Shown: in pieces, positions 16,375 through 22,053 of the stretch | How the letters are laid out: each line of letters opens with the position of its first letter | How positions within the stretch are numbered: the stretch's first letter is position 1 | Source of the DNA: Gemmatimonadaceae bacterium | GTDB taxonomy: Bacteria; Gemmatimonadota; Gemmatimonadetes; Gemmatimonadales; Gemmatimonadaceae | Assembly (NCBI GenBank): GCA_051859245.1 | Contig: JBHYGA010000005.1 | Span: 160,001 to 224,000 of the forward strand | Reading direction: 5' to 3' | DNA: 64,000 nt | Translations under genes and position numbers: made by a program | Notes under the pieces: model-generated | The model's database searches: none | Told to the model about the DNA's origin: nothing | The model's input: only the letters and a program-made list of their open reading frames with translations

Positions 16375-17916
16375 TCAACCCATCGACATCTCCGCCCGCC
16401 GCTCCGCCAGTCGCGCGTGCTCGTGCGCAATGCCAGCCGCCGCCATTGCATCTTCCACGAGCTTAGCCGCCCGCGACCCCGCACCAACCTCCGCGCCCTC
16501 CTGCTTCAGCGCGTGCACATTAATGCGCACATTCCAGATCGCTCCCTTGCACGCCGCCTCGGCGAGCAGTGCCGCTACCGTGGCATCACTGATCGCATTC
16601 TGATTGCCAATCCGCGCGACTTCGGCTGCGATCTCGCACACACGCGCGCACGCATTCGCCGTTTCAAGCGGCACGTCCGCTGCACCGTACAGTGCGATGT
16701 GAATCGCCTGCGTGCGTGCCGCCGCAGCTTCTTCTGTATCGCTGCCGAGTTGATACGCCGCGCGCACCGCTTCGTAGCTGTCCGCATCGCGCGTCACGAG
16801 GTCCGTGAGCGTGCGACGCAACGCTGACGCGCCCGCCGCAATCTGGCGCAGTTCTGTGTCGTGTGCCGCGTACTTCTTGCGACCAATGCTGAGCCCCGTG
16901 ACCATCTGCGCGAGCGCTGCACCGAGTGCGCCCGCGTGCGCCGAAACGCTACCACCACCTGGTGTCGGCGACGGCCCCGCCACGCGCGCGACAAATGCGT
17001 CAACACTTTCACCACCGGCCGCGAGTTCACGCACACGCGTTTCAATCAGCATGCGTGGTGAGTAGCCGCGAAGTTGCACGTGACGCGCGCCGGCTTCGAG
17101 CAGGCAGCGCTCTGGCACTAATCCAACGAGCTCACTCCAAGTTGGCGCAACGCCGAACGCTGCCGCTTCACTCTTCACCATTTCAAACACGCGATGCAGC
17201 GGTGTCTTTTCCGTGTCGACAAGATTCATGGACACCTGCGCTTGTCCGTCAACTTCAAGGCCCATGCCTTTCACGTAGCGCAGTCCACCGCTTGAACCGC
17301 GAATGGCTTTGGCCACTTCTTTGGCCACGGGCAGATTGCTCGCCGGGCCGAGGTAGACGTTGTAGGCGACGAGGAACGGTCGTGCACCGATTGCGATGGC
17401 GCCCGCGGTTGCGTGTACCGCGCGCGGGCCAAAGTCGGGAATGCGAGCGTCGTCAGTGGCAATGCTATCGCGAATGCCTTCGAATTGTCCGCGTCGCACG
17501 TCGGCGAGATTCTCGCGCGCAGGAGATTGTGCCGCGCACTCGTAGAGGTACACCGGAACCGACAGCTCACGCGCCACACGTTCGCCGAGCTCGCGCGCGA
17601 GTGCGATGCAGTCGTCCATGGTCACGCCATCGAGCGGAATGAACGGCACCACGTCGGTTGCACCGAGTCGCGGGTGTTCCCCAACGTGTTTGGTGAGATC
17701 AATGCGCGCGGTGGCTTCGCGTATGCCAGCGAATGCTGCGTTCACCGCCACTTCAATTGGTGCGACGAACGTGATCACCGTGCGATGGTGCGATGCGTCG
17801 CTTGAAACATCGAGCACGTGTGCGCCGTCCACGCCAGCGATGGCATCGCGAATTGCGGAGATGATGGCCGCGTCTCGGCCCTCAGAGAAGTTGGGGACGC
17901 ATTCAACGAAGGGCAT
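16375..17916 (-). CDS. ftcD: Glutamate formimidoyltransferase-cyclodeaminase (fused)
   Basis: ECVPNFSEGR, HVGEHPRLGATDVVPFIP, QVSMNL; C-terminal cyclodeaminase SPTPGGGSVSA, NVRIN. Confidence 0.95.
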   Translation of the reverse strand: MPFVECVPNFSEGRDAAIISAIRDAIAGVDGAHVLDVSSDASHHRTVITFVAPIEVAVNAAFAGIREATARIDLTKHVGEHPRLGATDVVPFIPLDGVTMDDCIALARELGERVARELSVPVYLYECAAQSPARENLADVRRGQFEGIRDSIATDDARIPDFGPRAVHATAGAIAIGARPFLVAYNVYLGPASNLPVAKEVAKAIRGSSGGLRYVKGMGLEVDGQAQVSMNLVDTEKTPLHRVFEMVKSEAAAFGVAPTWSELVGLVPERCLLEAGARHVQLRGYSPRMLIETRVRELAAGGESVDAFVARVAGPSPTPGGGSVSAHAGALGAALAQMVTGLSIGRKKYAAHDTELRQIAAGASALRRTLTDLVTRDADSYEAVRAAYQLGSDTEEAAAARTQAIHIALYGAADVPLETANACARVCEIAAEVARIGNQNAISDATVAALLAEAACKGAIWNVRINVHALKQEGAEVGAGSRAAKLVEDAMAAAGIAHEHARLAERRAEMSMG

Positions 17917-18017
17917 GGCCAGGGCGTGCGAGGGGGAGTGTGAGACTGTTGTCGACGTGCGTTACAGCAGAGTCTGCCTTGAAATTTAGATGGCGGAAAA
18001 GGCGGGGTATAGGGCAA

Positions 18018-18422
18018 ATGCCCAATTGCGTCGCATTGAGCCGCGAAGTACCTCAAGACATGGACGCACACGAACTCTTGATTCATGCAGATAATGGCTG
18101 GCTCAACTTCAGAAATCGGGACGGAGCTTTGAGTATTCCGGAGCGATACTCGCGCTCGTGCGCACAGCTCGCACAAATGTTGTCGCGCAGCGCGATGCGA
18201 TGTCAGATCGTGGAACTTCTAGTACAAGGCAAGTCGCGGAAGGAAATATCGAACGATATTCAGCGATCTCAGCACACCGTGGATACGCACATCAAGGCGT
18301 TGTATCGCGGCGTTGGCGTTGGCGATCGCGCGCAACTGATCGTGATTGCGGTATTGTTGTTCCGCTTCGGTGCCCCCCCCCCGGAACTGGGGACTGTACA
18401 TGAGCATAGTGTTGCTGAATGA
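18018..18422 (+). CDS. LuxR-type HTH regulator without a recognisable receiver domain
   Basis: IVELLVQGKSRKEISNDIQRSQHTVDTHIKALYRGVGVGDRAQL fits the LuxR/GerE HTH pattern; start uncertain (17940, 18018 or 18060). Confidence 0.8.
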   Translation: MPNCVALSREVPQDMDAHELLIHADNGWLNFRNRDGALSIPERYSRSCAQLAQMLSRSAMRCQIVELLVQGKSRKEISNDIQRSQHTVDTHIKALYRGVGVGDRAQLIVIAVLLFRFGAPPPELGTVHEHSVAE

Positions 18423-18473
18423 TGATGCCCTAACTGAATGCGGCTTTGTCTCATGTCCAACAAAGGAGATAGC

Positions 18474-19607
18474 GTGCTTGAGCGACGGATTATCGCGAGT
18501 CTTAGTGTAGGAGTAGTCGCCGTGAGTGTACTCGTCGCGGCTTGCGGCACACGAGAGCAGTCAGCAGTGGCACCAGTAGCAGAGGCTCCCCTCGATCTCA
18601 TGCACATGTTCGAGCGCTCTTTAAAGGATCCGATGTCGCTGGGAAATCAGCACAACGCTGGTCTTGACTCAATTCTGGTGAGAATAAAGCATGCACGAGC
18701 TCAGAAGAACGGCGCAAGATTGACGAAGTCCGAGATCTGCGACGTCATTTCCGGCATAGTGTCAGAGAAATTCGTCGAAGCAGAGGCCAAAGTTTTGGAG
18801 CGGACTCCTGGAAAATTTCTCCATCCGAGAAACGCGTGCAGAGGCGAAAATCTTGTTCTGGCTGCAGGTGGGCGCCTAAAGCAACTTCGTGCGATTCGCG
18901 CCTTCAGCATGGCACAAGCTAGCCTTACTGAGGATTGGATCGATACGGTGTGGGCCACGGATTCTTTGTGGGACGGAGCGGACGACATCAGCCTGCAGGA
19001 TGATTTGACTTTTTTGAGCAGTCTAGATGGCATCTTTACTGCTGCGATCAATGGAACCACCTCGTCCAGCGGCCTCTCCACTGCAGTTGGTGGGCTCTTA
19101 AGCTCGCTGAACCTGAGCGATGACGTTCAGGCGGAGTGGGTCACTGAGGTCGCCGCGCTCTCGGTTTCTTCGTCCGACTATTGGAACGCGAATCTCGAAG
19201 AGTGGCTCGACCAGTATTGCGAAGATCAGTCAGAGCAGATGCGTGCACCAAGCTCATCCATGATGGCATTGGACTGCGATGATGAAGGTGGTGGAGAGTC
19301 GCTTCGCGCTGGCTCCATGCTTGACGGCTGCTGTGAATGGAACGACGTGAAGGGCGTCGTTATCGCAGATGCAGTTGGGGCACTTGGCATTGGAGGTCTA
19401 CTCATCGATTCGTATATCCAAGGCAACGCCGCAAGCTGGAAGAAGGTTGCGCAAGGAACGCCCGGCTACAAGGTTTTGGTGCGCTACGAGAATCCCACTT
19501 ACTGGCAACAGGTTGTCGCCGGTGGAACCAAGGTTGCGAGGAGAGCAGTGATGGGTGGCATCTGGGGCGCAGCCATCAACTCTGCGGGTGCCTATCTAGC
19601 GCAGTGA
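18474..19607 (+). CDS. Hypothetical lipoprotein (377 aa) with Gly/Ala-rich bacteriocin-like C-terminus; candidate pro-toxin
   Basis: aaaggag SD before GTG 18474; signal peptide and lipobox VAAC (Cys24); C-terminal VIADAVGALGIGG and MGGIWGAAINSAGA. Confidence 0.75.
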   Translation: MLERRIIASLSVGVVAVSVLVAACGTREQSAVAPVAEAPLDLMHMFERSLKDPMSLGNQHNAGLDSILVRIKHARAQKNGARLTKSEICDVISGIVSEKFVEAEAKVLERTPGKFLHPRNACRGENLVLAAGGRLKQLRAIRAFSMAQASLTEDWIDTVWATDSLWDGADDISLQDDLTFLSSLDGIFTAAINGTTSSSGLSTAVGGLLSSLNLSDDVQAEWVTEVAALSVSSSDYWNANLEEWLDQYCEDQSEQMRAPSSSMMALDCDDEGGGESLRAGSMLDGCCEWNDVKGVVIADAVGALGIGGLLIDSYIQGNAASWKKVAQGTPGYKVLVRYENPTYWQQVVAGGTKVARRAVMGGIWGAAINSAGAYLAQ

Positions 19608-19618
19608 GTAACAGCCGA

Positions 19619-19658
19619 GCACTGCCGCGCTCCGAGATACGGACGAGCGCGGCAATGC
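19619..19658 (+). other. GC-rich stem-loop between lipoprotein and membrane protein genes
   Basis: gcactgccgcgctc (19619-19632) pairs with gagcgcggcaatgc (19645-19658), one mismatch; no U-tract. Confidence 0.55.
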
Positions 19659-19740
19659 GAGTCATTGACGTGGGCGCGCGTTCGAGAGTAGAGACAGTGA
19701 GTTGATCAGGAGTATTGCGACATCGCAATAGGAGAACTGC

Positions 19741-20154
19741 ATGCCGACGAAGTTTCGACCAGTATTGGTTCTCGCTTTACCCATAGTGGCAGCGATGTCA
19801 GCGCTAGTATTGAGTTCGACCGCTAAACCCGTCAGTGCCGCGTTGGTCTGGAGAGTGTTGGTCGTCTCCATCGCTCTCTTTGGCCTCTACTGCGGATTTT
19901 GGGTCGCATTGTCGCGACTTGGGCGATCCCGACCTGTTCTCGTTGGCGCGATCCGAGGCGCTGCATGGGGAATGCTGGTAGCCTACCTGAACTCTTGGGC
20001 AGCCGGCGAACCTGCGCCGCCTTACGTGGCCGTCTGGTACAAGGTCATCGCAATGTCGTTGGCCTTCGCAATTCTCGCTTCAGGCGGAGGACCAAGGACG
20101 AAGGTGCCTTCGAGGTTGCGGCACTGGTTTGAAAACAAAGCGATGATCCAGTGA
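19741..20154 (+). CDS. Small membrane protein with about 4 TM helices; candidate immunity protein
   Basis: taggag SD; 137 aa with four hydrophobic segments and a basic tail. Confidence 0.7.
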   Translation: MPTKFRPVLVLALPIVAAMSALVLSSTAKPVSAALVWRVLVVSIALFGLYCGFWVALSRLGRSRPVLVGAIRGAAWGMLVAYLNSWAAGEPAPPYVAVWYKVIAMSLAFAILASGGGPRTKVPSRLRHWFENKAMIQ

Positions 20155-20209
20155 AATCATCACGCGCTGTTACGGTCGGCGAAGGCCATGTGTGACATTG
20201 CGCGCCGCC

Positions 20210-21049
20210 TCAGCGCGCCGCCAGCACGCCGAGCAACCACTCATGCATCACCCCGTTGCTCGCGACAATCGGGCCGTGTACCACACCAACGTCGCGTCCG
20301 TCAAAATCCGTCACTTGTCCACCGGCTTCACGAATAATCAGTATCCCCGCCGCCACATCCCACGGCGCGAGCTCAAGCTCCCAGAAGCCCTGAAATCGTC
20401 CGCACGCGACATCGCATAAATCGAGCGCCGCGGCACCGGCGCGTCGCATGCCGGCAGTGCTCGCGGCAACGGCGGCAAACTGCGGCTGATACCGCGCGAG
20501 ATGATGCGTGTGCTTGAACGGAAACCCGGTGCCAATGAGCGCGCGCATCGGCTCTGCAATCGGCGACACCGTGATGCGTGAATACTCGCCAGATGCCAGC
20601 ACACGATGCGCGCCGAGTCCGCGCGCGGCAGCAAATGTTTCGCCGGTTGCCGCATTCACAATCGCTCCCGCCGCAAGCTCGCCATCAACGAGAATGCCAA
20701 CGCTCGTGGCGTACCACGGAAAGCCGTGCAAAAAGTTCGTCGTGCCATCAAGCGGGTCAGCCACCACCGCAATGCCGCGCGAAACATCGGCGTCCGGCGT
20801 CATCTCCTCGGCCAATAACACCGCGCTGGGCGCCAAACGCGTGATTACCTCGGCCAACGCGGTCTCAGCCTCACGGTCCACATGACTCACAAAGTCGGCC
20901 GGGCTCTTCACCTCCCACGTGAGCGCGTCCACGTCGCGCGCACGCGCTGATACAACTGCGGCTCCCGCCCGCGCCGCGGCCAGGGCAACATCACGCAATG
21001 CCGCAACATCCGTTTCACTCTTCGCTTGCACAGGAACTGCCTCGCTCAC
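20210..21049 (-). CDS. suhB: Inositol monophosphatase family protein (SuhB-like)
   Basis: AEE, DPLDGTTNFLHG, RRAGAAALDLC, LAPWDVAAG; start uncertain (GTG 21049 or 21031). Confidence 0.9.
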   Translation of the reverse strand: MSEAVPVQAKSETDVAALRDVALAAARAGAAVVSARARDVDALTWEVKSPADFVSHVDREAETALAEVITRLAPSAVLLAEEMTPDADVSRGIAVVADPLDGTTNFLHGFPWYATSVGILVDGELAAGAIVNAATGETFAAARGLGAHRVLASGEYSRITVSPIAEPMRALIGTGFPFKHTHHLARYQPQFAAVAASTAGMRRAGAAALDLCDVACGRFQGFWELELAPWDVAAGILIIREAGGQVTDFDGRDVGVVHGPIVASNGVMHEWLLGVLAAR

Positions 21050-21060
21050 AGTTTTGTGAC

Positions 21061-22053
21061 ATGACACGCATCTTCAGTGGAATCCAGCCCTCTGGCGAAC
21101 TCCACATCGGCAACTATCTCGGCGCCATCCGCAACTGGGTCGCGCTCCAGCAACAACATACCGGCTCGCTCTTTTGCGTGGTGGACTATCACGCGATTAC
21201 GGGCAACTACGATACCGACCTGCTACGCCAGCGCCGCTGGGATATGGCGCGGTCGCTGCTCGCCGCGGGCATTGATCCGTCGCAGGCCGCGCTGTTCATG
21301 CAGAGCGACGTGCCGGAACATACCGAGCTGTCGTGGATCTTCACGACGAACCAGCCCATCGGCGATCTGGAACGCCAGACGCAGTTCAAGGACAAAGCCG
21401 GCAGCATGGAAAGCATTCCGGCCGGCCTGCTTATGTACCCGGTGCTGCAGGCGGCGGACATTTTGCTCTACCGCGCGGATCGTGTGCCGGTGGGTGAAGA
21501 TCAGGTGCAGCACCTCGAACTGTCGCGTGACATCGCGCGTCGATGGAACGCGCGTTTTGGCGAAGGATTTTTTCCGGAACCGCAGCCGCTGCTTACGCCC
21601 ACGCGTCGCATCATGGGGCTCGACGGTAAAGCCAAAATGTCCAAGTCGCTTGGCAATACGATCGGGTTGCTCGAAAGTGATGACGACATCTGGCAGAAGT
21701 TGCGCCCCGCCGCAACTGATCCGCAGCGTGTGCGCAAAACAGACGCCGGTCGTCCCGAAGTGTGCAACATTTTTCAGTTGCACAAAGCATTCTCGCCGGA
21801 AGCAACGGTTGCTGAGGTCGACACGAACTGTCGCACCGCCGCGTGGGGGTGCATTGACTGCAAGAAGGTGCTGCATACGCACATGGTCGCCGAGCTGACG
21901 CCAATTCGCACGCGTGCACAGCTGCTCGCGGATGAGCCGTCACGCGTGCTTGATGCGCTGGCCGATGGTGCGCGTTCGGCGCGTGCGATTGCGCAGGAGA
22001 CGATGCGTGAGGTGAAGCAGCGCATGGGGCTGGATCCGCTCAAGGTTTCGTGA
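21061..22053 (+). CDS. trpS: Tryptophan--tRNA ligase
   Basis: SGIQPSGELHIGNY, YPVLQAADILLY, VPVGEDQ, KMSKS. Confidence 0.98.
   Translation: MTRIFSGIQPSGELHIGNYLGAIRNWVALQQQHTGSLFCVVDYHAITGNYDTDLLRQRRWDMARSLLAAGIDPSQAALFMQSDVPEHTELSWIFTTNQPIGDLERQTQFKDKAGSMESIPAGLLMYPVLQAADILLYRADRVPVGEDQVQHLELSRDIARRWNARFGEGFFPEPQPLLTPTRRIMGLDGKAKMSKSLGNTIGLLESDDDIWQKLRPAATDPQRVRKTDAGRPEVCNIFQLHKAFSPEATVAEVDTNCRTAAWGCIDCKKVLHTHMVAELTPIRTRAQLLADEPSRVLDALADGARSARAIAQETMREVKQRMGLDPLKVS

Follow-up and report, generated by a model that had tools for sequence, protein, structure and literature searches.

Do three plus-strand genes lodged between the minus-strand genes suhB and ftcD form a toxin and immunity module? 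The genes lie at positions 17,930–20,160 of a 64,000-nucleotide (nt) stretch of Gemmatimonadaceae DNA (contig JBHYGA010000005.1; hereafter the window, to which all positions refer), and their open reading frames (ORFs), as first described, encode a LuxR-type regulator, a lipoprotein and a small membrane protein. The original prediction took them for a horizontally acquired, self-regulated antagonism module with a lipid-anchored pro-domain, a cleavable toxin and a four-transmembrane (TM) immunity candidate. We found that the conserved core is a two-gene module, consisting of the lipoprotein and a downstream, subtype-specific membrane protein, and that this pairing is a general rule for a new protein family. 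As to function, we tentatively favour the reading that the lipoprotein is a membrane-active toxin and its TM partner an inner-membrane immunity protein, to which we give a little less than an even chance.

The pairing was assessed at family loci from other genomes, 25 in number, one of which ends at a contig edge, leaving 24. A locus was counted as paired when a same-strand ORF of 55–156 amino acids (aa), with at least one TM-grade segment, started no more than 250 nt after the lipoprotein stop codon. Such an ORF is present at 20 of the 24 loci, often at a distance of −19 to +23 nt. As a background we used the non-overlapping ORFs of at least 250 aa in the genome of the window, a crude one-genome ORF proxy, in which 149 of 2,586 (5.8%) have a downstream ORF of this kind and 33 (1.3%) one with at least two segments. 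Downstream TM genes beside homologues had been proposed beforehand as a check, and the expectation was borne out. The four misses are L063 and L068, where overlapping two-helix ORFs fall just under the threshold, and L054 and L066 (broken). The family gene itself is split into pieces at three loci (L066, L068 and L069).

Partners vary far more than the lipoproteins that they accompany. Counting the TM protein of the window and one from a metagenome locus (L033), 22 partners fall into 14 unrelated BLASTP clusters, whereas 21 of the 22 matching lipoproteins form a single cluster. Partner types persist as proteins between species of a single genus and in a metagenome contig; a 72-aa type shows 39–72% identity and occurs in exactly 3 of 401 genomes, those that carry its lipoprotein subtype. 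Because the pairing recurs at most loci, the partners form many clusters against one of lipoproteins, and the 72-aa type tracks its lipoprotein subtype, the two genes constitute a co-inherited, co-varying unit. A complex prediction for lipoprotein residues 160–389 with the TM protein of the window returned a score of 0.00, which speaks neither for nor against binding.

In the window, the TM gene has the Shine–Dalgarno sequence that was first ascribed to it (Table 1). The four TM segments originally proposed hold for three, which reach a Kyte–Doolittle hydrophobicity of at least 1.6 (residues 8–26, 39–57 and 96–114), while the fourth (65–83) lies just under this value at 1.48. The RNA fold includes an inverted repeat in the spacer behind the lipoprotein gene; taken whole, the spacer folds no differently from its shuffles (z −1.13). 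A second spacer hairpin (19,713–19,730) stands directly ahead of the Shine–Dalgarno sequence. Our searches found no homologue of this TM protein, and this, together with the 133-nt spacer and its hairpin, would suit the view that the three genes are unrelated hitch-hikers, or that the TM ORF is not a real gene. Against it stand the ribosome-binding site AGGAG, the ATG and the 3–4 hydrophobic helices of the ORF, the recurrence of the arrangement well above background and the conservation of partner ORFs as proteins, and we give this view almost no weight.

Table 1 Features of the suhB–ftcD locus, with positions in the window
Feature	Position	Strand	Remarks
ftcD	16375–17916	−	FTCD_N, E 5.9e-68
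LuxR/GerE-type helix-turn-helix (HTH) regulator	17940–18422	+	160 aa (longest ORF; true start may be later)
C10 homopolymer	18373–18382	+	Inside 3′ end of LuxR gene; encodes Pro run of ...GAPPPELG
Lipoprotein, novel family, predicted all-helical	18438–19607	+	Longest ORF 389 aa; probable start GTG 18474 (377 aa)
Predicted signal peptide II, lipobox LVAAC	18474–18545	+	Cys36 codon 18543–18545
Predicted helical N-terminal and middle region	18585–19223	+	Residues 50–262; motifs NPxSxGxxHNxxLD, ExC, WxDSxW, SSxxYWxxNxxxWxDxxC
Acidic Gly/Cys-containing linker	19224–19337	+	Residues 263–300; predicted disordered; mean pairwise identity 0.18
C-terminal module	19338–19607	+	Residues 301–389; 'ADxxGA' helix with Asp311, basic insert, terminal helix GAAINSAGA
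Inverted repeat	19619–19658	+	14-nt arms, 93% complementary; in 133-nt lipoprotein–TM spacer
Shine–Dalgarno AGGAG of TM gene	19730–19734	+	6 nt ahead of ATG
Small polytopic membrane protein, candidate partner/immunity	19741–20154	+	137 aa, 3–4 TM
suhB	20210–21067	−	Inositol_P, E 3.5e-54

The lipoprotein gene probably starts at an in-frame GTG within the longest ORF. AAGGAG lies 5 nt ahead of this codon, and translation from it gives a classical signal peptide (MLERRIIASLSVGVVAVSVLVAAC); together these argue for a protein of 377 aa. The lipobox, already recognized in the first reading of the sequence, is L-V-A-A-C. Neither Pfam, NCBIfam, PADLOC nor PHROGs has a match for the protein, and the best hit of the family profile among Protein Data Bank (PDB) sequences has an E value of 1.7.

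Relatives are few and distant. A phmmer search of 1.84 billion representative proteins gave 20 matches at E ≤ 1e-3, 12 of which have E ≤ 1e-10 at 20–40% identity. Eighteen of these matches and the window protein make up a 19-row alignment (A1); P0018, which has low-complexity tandem repeats and matched in five short stretches, and P0001, a near-identical fragment, were dropped from the alignments. In a word-indexed search, the single lipoprotein sequence retrieved only P0001 and the A1 profile two entries, and the single sequence found nothing in 40 relatives, the unpublished genome G021 included. In a sample of 401 genomes from the whole phylum, the family profile detected members in 5; after enrichment it detected them in 26 genomes out of 401 from the taxonomic family, representing 8 of its 77 genera. 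The nearest entries in the ESM Atlas are unnamed clusters of ~290-aa proteins from Bacteroidota and Gemmatimonadota, which we regard as a lead only, and which agrees with the original mention of Bacteroidota lipoproteins. A profile search with a further alignment (A3) found two overlapping metagenome loci and nothing in genome contigs, and it is therefore these Atlas leads that point to Bacteroidota. On this evidence the lipoprotein belongs to a sparse, previously undescribed family, and the suggestion of an uncharacterized family with a set order of motifs is supported, since G..HN..L, S..YW and D..G recur in this order across the aligned members.

Conservation in a 39-sequence alignment centres on a small number of residues. 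W249 is invariant (39/39), followed by S245 (38/39), D311 (37/39), C134 (35/39), Y248 and, in the terminal helix, S382 (34/39 each), C101 (32/39) and H72 (31/39); G69 and H72–N73 form a conserved 'GxxHN'. The lipobox Cys is present in 31 of the 39 members, and several of the exceptions are N-terminally truncated fragments. The conserved cysteines would fit an oxidising, extracytoplasmic location. Further members (19 and 18 sequences) gave sub-threshold noise only against Pfam, with no match to Bacteriocin_IIc or a Gly-zipper family; none of 37 members matched PF05433, PF13488 or related glycine-zipper lipoprotein families at E ≤ 1, and neither the lipoprotein nor the scanned members contain an enzymatic domain recognized by Pfam or NCBIfam.

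P0001 (277 aa) is 99% identical to the window protein, diverges fully after residue 321 of the latter and ends 12 residues further on. This divergence suggests a close strain with a rearranged or truncated C-terminal module. A G-to-E change in P0001 recurs in an islet fragment from a sediment metagenome run (X2).

The C-terminus is the part to which toxicity had been assigned. It had been described as 89 aa long, Gly/Ala-rich and hydrophobic. Its composition is as stated, with 28 Gly or Ala among the last 89 residues, but the hydrophobicity is uneven: a helix at residues 306–324 is borderline TM-grade (Kyte–Doolittle 1.78), an insert of ~45 residues between the helices is hydrophilic and basic, and the terminal small-residue helix reaches 0.86. 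Small-residue helices were identified at residues 305–319 and 373–384, one of which alone reaches 1.6. Across the family, the C-terminus is predicted to form two conserved helices rich in small residues ('glycine-zipper-like'), in which one Asp is nearly invariant. Long-form members, including the window protein, carry a basic insert of 45–70 residues between the two helices; short-form members have a tight glycine-zipper hairpin without it. This architecture, with the insert present or absent, is kept in all full-length members. In two short-form loci (L061 and L062) the glycine-zipper helix weakly matches Pfam DUF6861 (E ~0.01, sub-threshold).

AlphaFold with a 24-row alignment gave an all-alpha model with a predicted local distance difference test score (pLDDT) of 74.7 and a predicted template modelling score (pTM) of 0.71; from the single sequence, the pLDDT was 36. 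Confident zones comprise residues 50–115, 165–260 and 300–375, with pLDDT above 85 at 50–110 and 170–260 and between 85 and 96 at 301–370, and the linker is disordered at 274–296 (below 50). Foldseek returned no match to the model at E ≤ 0.001. In an exhaustive structural search the best Z score was 8.0, to unrelated helical bundles, which lies within the range generic for helical proteins. The model thus confidently predicts an all-helical fold without a clear known relative.

These data revise the picture of a toxin that can be detached. The original prediction of a variable, detachable toxin C-terminus is contradicted by the alignment, in which mean pairwise identity is about as high in the C-terminal block (0.216) as in the two N-terminal ones (0.204 and 0.231). 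Since identity is this even from end to end, the C-terminus is not a cassette that has been swapped, and we rejected a polymorphic-toxin reading with a constant N-terminus and an exchanged C-terminus. Because the C-terminus is, moreover, confidently modelled within a model of pTM 0.71, the fold argues against a modular or cleavable toxin domain. The proposed lipid-anchored pro-domain with a cleavable toxin is therefore not supported: the C-terminus is a conserved part of the fold, and no result supports cleavage.

How could such a protein act as a toxin? From its features we infer an export route, membrane insertion, toxicity, immunity and regulation as follows. The lipoprotein would be exported through Sec and signal peptidase II and become lipid-anchored in the envelope, at the cell surface or in vesicles, where the soluble helical bundle would shield the hydrophobic C-terminal hairpin. 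When it arrives at the cytoplasmic membrane of a neighbour from the periplasmic side, the hairpin would insert there, and inserted hairpins would oligomerize through their small-xxx-small faces and dissipate the membrane potential. The co-transcribed inner-membrane partner would block this attack in the producer, whose own membrane is exposed during export. Every copy would need a membrane partner because Sec export would expose the producer membrane to the hairpin from the periplasm.

Several toxin-like hints favour this scheme. A gene for a CPBP/Rce1-like (Abi-type) intramembrane protease (PF02517) lies directly upstream of the family gene, on the same strand, at five loci of two genera; the CPBP/Abi family has been linked to bacteriocin immunity. 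In another genome of the same genus (G002), all that is left of a family gene is its final 36 codons (94% identity to P0015), with an intact 132-aa three-TM ORF behind them, an arrangement that resembles a retained immunity gene. The conserved cysteines described above are a third hint.

A number of observations weigh on the other side. No resemblance to known toxins was found in sequence or fold (Pfam, NCBIfam, PDB, Foldseek and structural search), the C-terminal region is no more variable than the rest and is modelled confidently as part of the whole, and just one C-terminal helix is TM-grade in hydrophobicity. Genes for delivery or release are absent from the cassette. With diffusible toxins, the immunity gene often spreads on its own; for the 72-aa partner type, the one assessed in this way, orphan genes were found in 0 extra genomes of the 401. 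Nor are the family loci independent, since some genera contribute several of them, and the background control is crude. Finally, a non-toxic two-protein envelope complex would show an equally conserved, co-varying pair.

This last point leads to the main rival, a non-toxic accessory envelope module in which a complex of lipoprotein and partner stabilizes, remodels or senses the envelope, much as glycine-zipper lipoproteins of the SlyB type protect the outer membrane, and serves as a niche-adaptive trait carried on an islet. The strict co-occurrence of the two genes, their close coupling and their co-variation, a C-terminal hairpin that belongs to the fold and is not a cassette, and the lack of orphan partners (72-aa type, 401 genomes) are all as this explanation would have them. 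However, the 37 scanned members have no glycine-zipper lipoprotein match (PF05433, PF13488) or other Pfam match above cut-off, and 14 unrelated partner types, a patchy spread (26 of 401 genomes) and pseudogenes would not be usual in a structural partner. Antagonism also accounts better for the CPBP neighbours and for the G002 remnant with its intact partner. We consider an envelope module less likely than the toxin reading, but a serious rival to it.

The remaining neighbours of the family loci are unrelated housekeeping genes. At the metagenome locus L033 (1224–2089), the lipoprotein/TM pair is followed by ORFs that by eye resemble a BlaI-type repressor and a BlaR-like membrane protein. Neither the cassette nor 58 neighbour ORFs at the 24 other loci include a dedicated ATP-binding cassette (ABC)/type I exporter, and no prophage context was found here or at those loci. 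PADLOC and PHROGs matched none of the three window proteins nor five other family and partner proteins. A lysis cassette (holin or spanin) was considered and dropped because there was no phage context and no PHROGs match.

The first gene of the cassette raises the question of regulation. Residues 88–137 of its ORF match PF00196 GerE (E 5e-9, 36.1 bits against a cut-off of 23.5), in agreement with the initial LuxR-HTH call. Pfam at E ≤ 0.1 shows no input domain, either receiver or autoinducer-binding, and the LuxR-type matches in NCBIfam lie far below cut-off and cover the HTH only. The product is thus best described, from its domain content, as a small putative 'solo' HTH protein. Homologues in the genus (64% identity in G003, 51% in G012 and 42% in G006) each precede a different lipoprotein gene, unrelated to that of the window, and the one in G006 sits at the same ftcD site. 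A scan of the 58 neighbour ORFs found no GerE/LuxR gene beside any of the 24 other family loci. Since it is absent there and its homologues precede unrelated lipoproteins, the LuxR gene appears to be a locally associated regulator outside the conserved module, and a habit of the genus of pairing small LuxR genes with lipoprotein genes seems to account for its presence. The description of the module as 'self-regulated' is accordingly lost for the family, and could at best be true of this locus.

The same data bear on a signalling unit, in which the lipoprotein would sense a cue, the TM protein relay it and the LuxR-type regulator provide the output. The regulator gene stands immediately ahead of the lipoprotein gene and points the same way, its homologues in the genus are likewise paired with genes for lipoproteins, and the TM protein weakly resembles the anti-sigma factor NrsF (PF06532; E 0.0017, profile positions 84–192 of 204). 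That match scores 18.7 bits under a cut-off of 26.8, however, no other family locus adjoins a GerE/LuxR gene, and the lipoproteins behind the LuxR homologues are unrelated and lack TM partners of this kind, which makes a signalling unit very improbable.

Two further observations concern the regulator gene. The C10 tract near its end, just upstream of the lipoprotein gene, could be slippage-prone; the Pro run that it encodes is also present in the G012 homologue, and contigs of sediment run X2 span part of the LuxR gene (18,112–18,262), with the tract outside their coverage. The lipoprotein behind the G012 homologue (L040 489–1484, minus strand; G012:C40) has 331 aa and ends in an acidic linker rich in Glu and Gly (EEEGGGSEGGGGGGE) followed by a short tail with Cys; its linker resembles that of the window lipoprotein in style, and the two proteins are unrelated.

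The cassette also differs from its surroundings in composition. The GC content of positions 17,930–20,160 is 55.2%, compared with 62.0% for the genome (4.70 Mb; z −3.78), and just 0.26% of 9,355 same-length genome windows are equally low. At third codon positions, the cassette genes have 58–62% GC and the flanking genes 67–72%. We then considered the site in relatives, using 80 loci with ftcD relatives (Gemmatimonadaceae/Gemmatimonas metagenome-assembled genomes), 73 of which have sufficient upstream DNA. The gap between suhB and ftcD is below 300 nt in 64 of the 73 and 302–3,174 nt in the other nine, none of which contains a member of the lipoprotein family. Because the two genes are adjacent in most of these loci, the 2.2-kb cassette is an accessory islet inserted at a variable suhB–ftcD site. 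Composition and adjacency together bear out the proposal of an atypical, inserted cassette. As was also noted at the outset, its three genes include no transporter, protease or integrase, according to the ORF list and the Pfam scan. Three sediment metagenome runs, belonging to two other studies, have contigs with short, near-identical islet fragments.

No direct repeats or att-like sites were found flanking the islet, and a scan of it gave no promoter-like sites. The sole terminator-like site is a hairpin with a T-run behind suhB (20,140–20,163, minus strand), and the TM-gene stop codon overlaps it; on its right-hand side the insert therefore abuts the suhB terminator.

In 14 further genomes of the genus, suhB adjoins ftcD in five cases and different cargo separates them in six, with three unresolved. 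Among the alternative cargo are a spondin-like lipoprotein accompanied by a two-component system, lipoproteins resembling beta-propellers, a nucleotidyltransferase-like gene, pieces of transposases and an extra copy of ftcD, and in G006 and G007 it is toxin–antitoxin-like (a PIN-like ORF, assigned by eye, and a nucleotidyltransferase-like ORF). The G006 site (L020, G006:C78:1500-14200) holds two ftcD copies, 83–84% identical to that of the window, together with transposase-like fragments, the PIN-like and nucleotidyltransferase-like ORFs, several beta-propeller-like lipoproteins and the LuxR homologue, which has internal stops.

Such a hotspot raises the possibility of phage exclusion or defence, with a surface or periplasmic lipoprotein and its partner blocking adsorption or DNA entry, or causing an abortive depolarization. 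Temperate phages carry superinfection-exclusion lipoproteins, and the accessory, islet-borne, patchy and fast-diverging distribution of the family would agree with a defensive role, as would the toxin–antitoxin-like cargo of G006 and G007. The PADLOC and PHROGs searches and the missing prophage context described above point the other way, and we hold phage exclusion to be improbable.

The reading of a membrane toxin with an immunity protein can be extended to a broader proposal, which we regard as possible but doubtful. The family would then constitute a new bacteriocin class of diderms: Sec/Lol-exported lipoproteins with a hidden glycine-zipper hairpin and an invariant Asp, forming ion-conducting oligomers in the inner membrane of a neighbour, each with its own rapidly replaced small inner-membrane immunity protein, and distributed in two-gene islets across Gemmatimonadota and perhaps Bacteroidota, with no dedicated secretion system. 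Gemmatimonadota are abundant in soils and sediments, and a literature search, including a full-text query for bacteriocin and lipoprotein that returned unrelated work only, found no work on how they compete. If the toxin reading is true, the islet exemplifies a family of lipoprotein toxins that need no delivery system, built on a new fold and a simple two-gene logic, and a source of membrane-active proteins with cognate inhibitors. If it is wrong, a conserved two-protein envelope module still stands, unannotated in Pfam, NCBIfam, PADLOC and PHROGs. Either way, the protein family has not been described before and follows a defined partner rule, whatever its function, and a confident structural model, the conserved residues W249, S245 and D311, and 14 natural partner variants are available for studies of specificity.

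Known systems offer partial parallels. In pore-forming colicins, a soluble helical bundle hides a hydrophobic Ala/Gly-rich element, attack occurs from the periplasmic side and a 3–4-TM immunity protein protects the producer. We propose that the window pair shares the bundle with a hidden hydrophobic element, the periplasmic-side attack and the small polytopic inner-membrane partner; it differs in its lipobox and in having no receptor-binding or translocation domains, lysis gene or plasmid context, and no colicin, or colicin pore domain, is among the 50 structural matches listed. SlyB/PCP lipoproteins likewise combine a lipoprotein with a glycine-zipper helical hairpin, but their zipper directly follows the lipobox and matches PF05433/PF13488, whereas in the window lipoprotein it is C-terminal, behind a ~260-residue helical domain, and those families are unmatched.

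The SitA toxins of myxobacteria are lipoproteins (PMC8546572) and share with the window pair the lipobox, an adjacent cognate immunity gene (here a candidate), several families and a patchy, islet-like distribution. They differ in their family-specific N-terminal escort domains, polymorphic C-terminal nucleases with a cytoplasmic site of action and delivery by TraAB outer-membrane exchange. In the window family the C-terminus is conserved to the same degree as the N-terminus, with no polymorphic enzymatic domain, and is membrane-like, and its partner sits in the membrane. The polytopic membrane proteins ExiCD neutralize the glycine-zipper toxin EsxX from outside (PMC12744356). The likeness lies in a C-terminal glycine-zipper segment, toxic in EsxX, and in a polytopic membrane partner against a toxin that arrives from outside. 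EsxX, by contrast, is an LXG-domain substrate of the type VII secretion system of Firmicutes, with a second, cytoplasmic immunity pair and orphan membrane immunity genes; the window pair belongs to a diderm and is predicted to use Sec/lipoprotein export, and no orphans were found for the 72-aa partner type.

Closest in outline is Cdz of Caulobacter crescentus, in which killing by the glycine-zipper proteins CdzC/D depends on contact and immunity comes from CdzI, an inner-membrane protein with 3 TM segments (PMC5380434). The shared features are small-residue/GxxxG-rich helices as the presumed membrane-active part, a toxin that is cell-associated and not freely diffusing (here predicted), and a small polytopic membrane protein without homologues encoded next to it, whose role in immunity is established for Cdz. 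The zippers are clear in the short-form members of our family, and in the window protein only one helix reaches a Kyte–Doolittle value of 1.6. CdzC/D, however, are peptides of 84–86 aa with dedicated type I export encoded in the locus, whereas the window lipoprotein has 389 aa, is predicted to be Sec-dependent and contains a large conserved helical domain, with no transporter gene and no sequence similarity to Cdz. It likewise lies outside the class II/Cdz type of peptide, below 100 aa with a double-glycine or type I leader, having a lipobox in place of such a leader. If its function holds, the window pair would be kin to these membrane-targeting toxin/immunity-like pairs.

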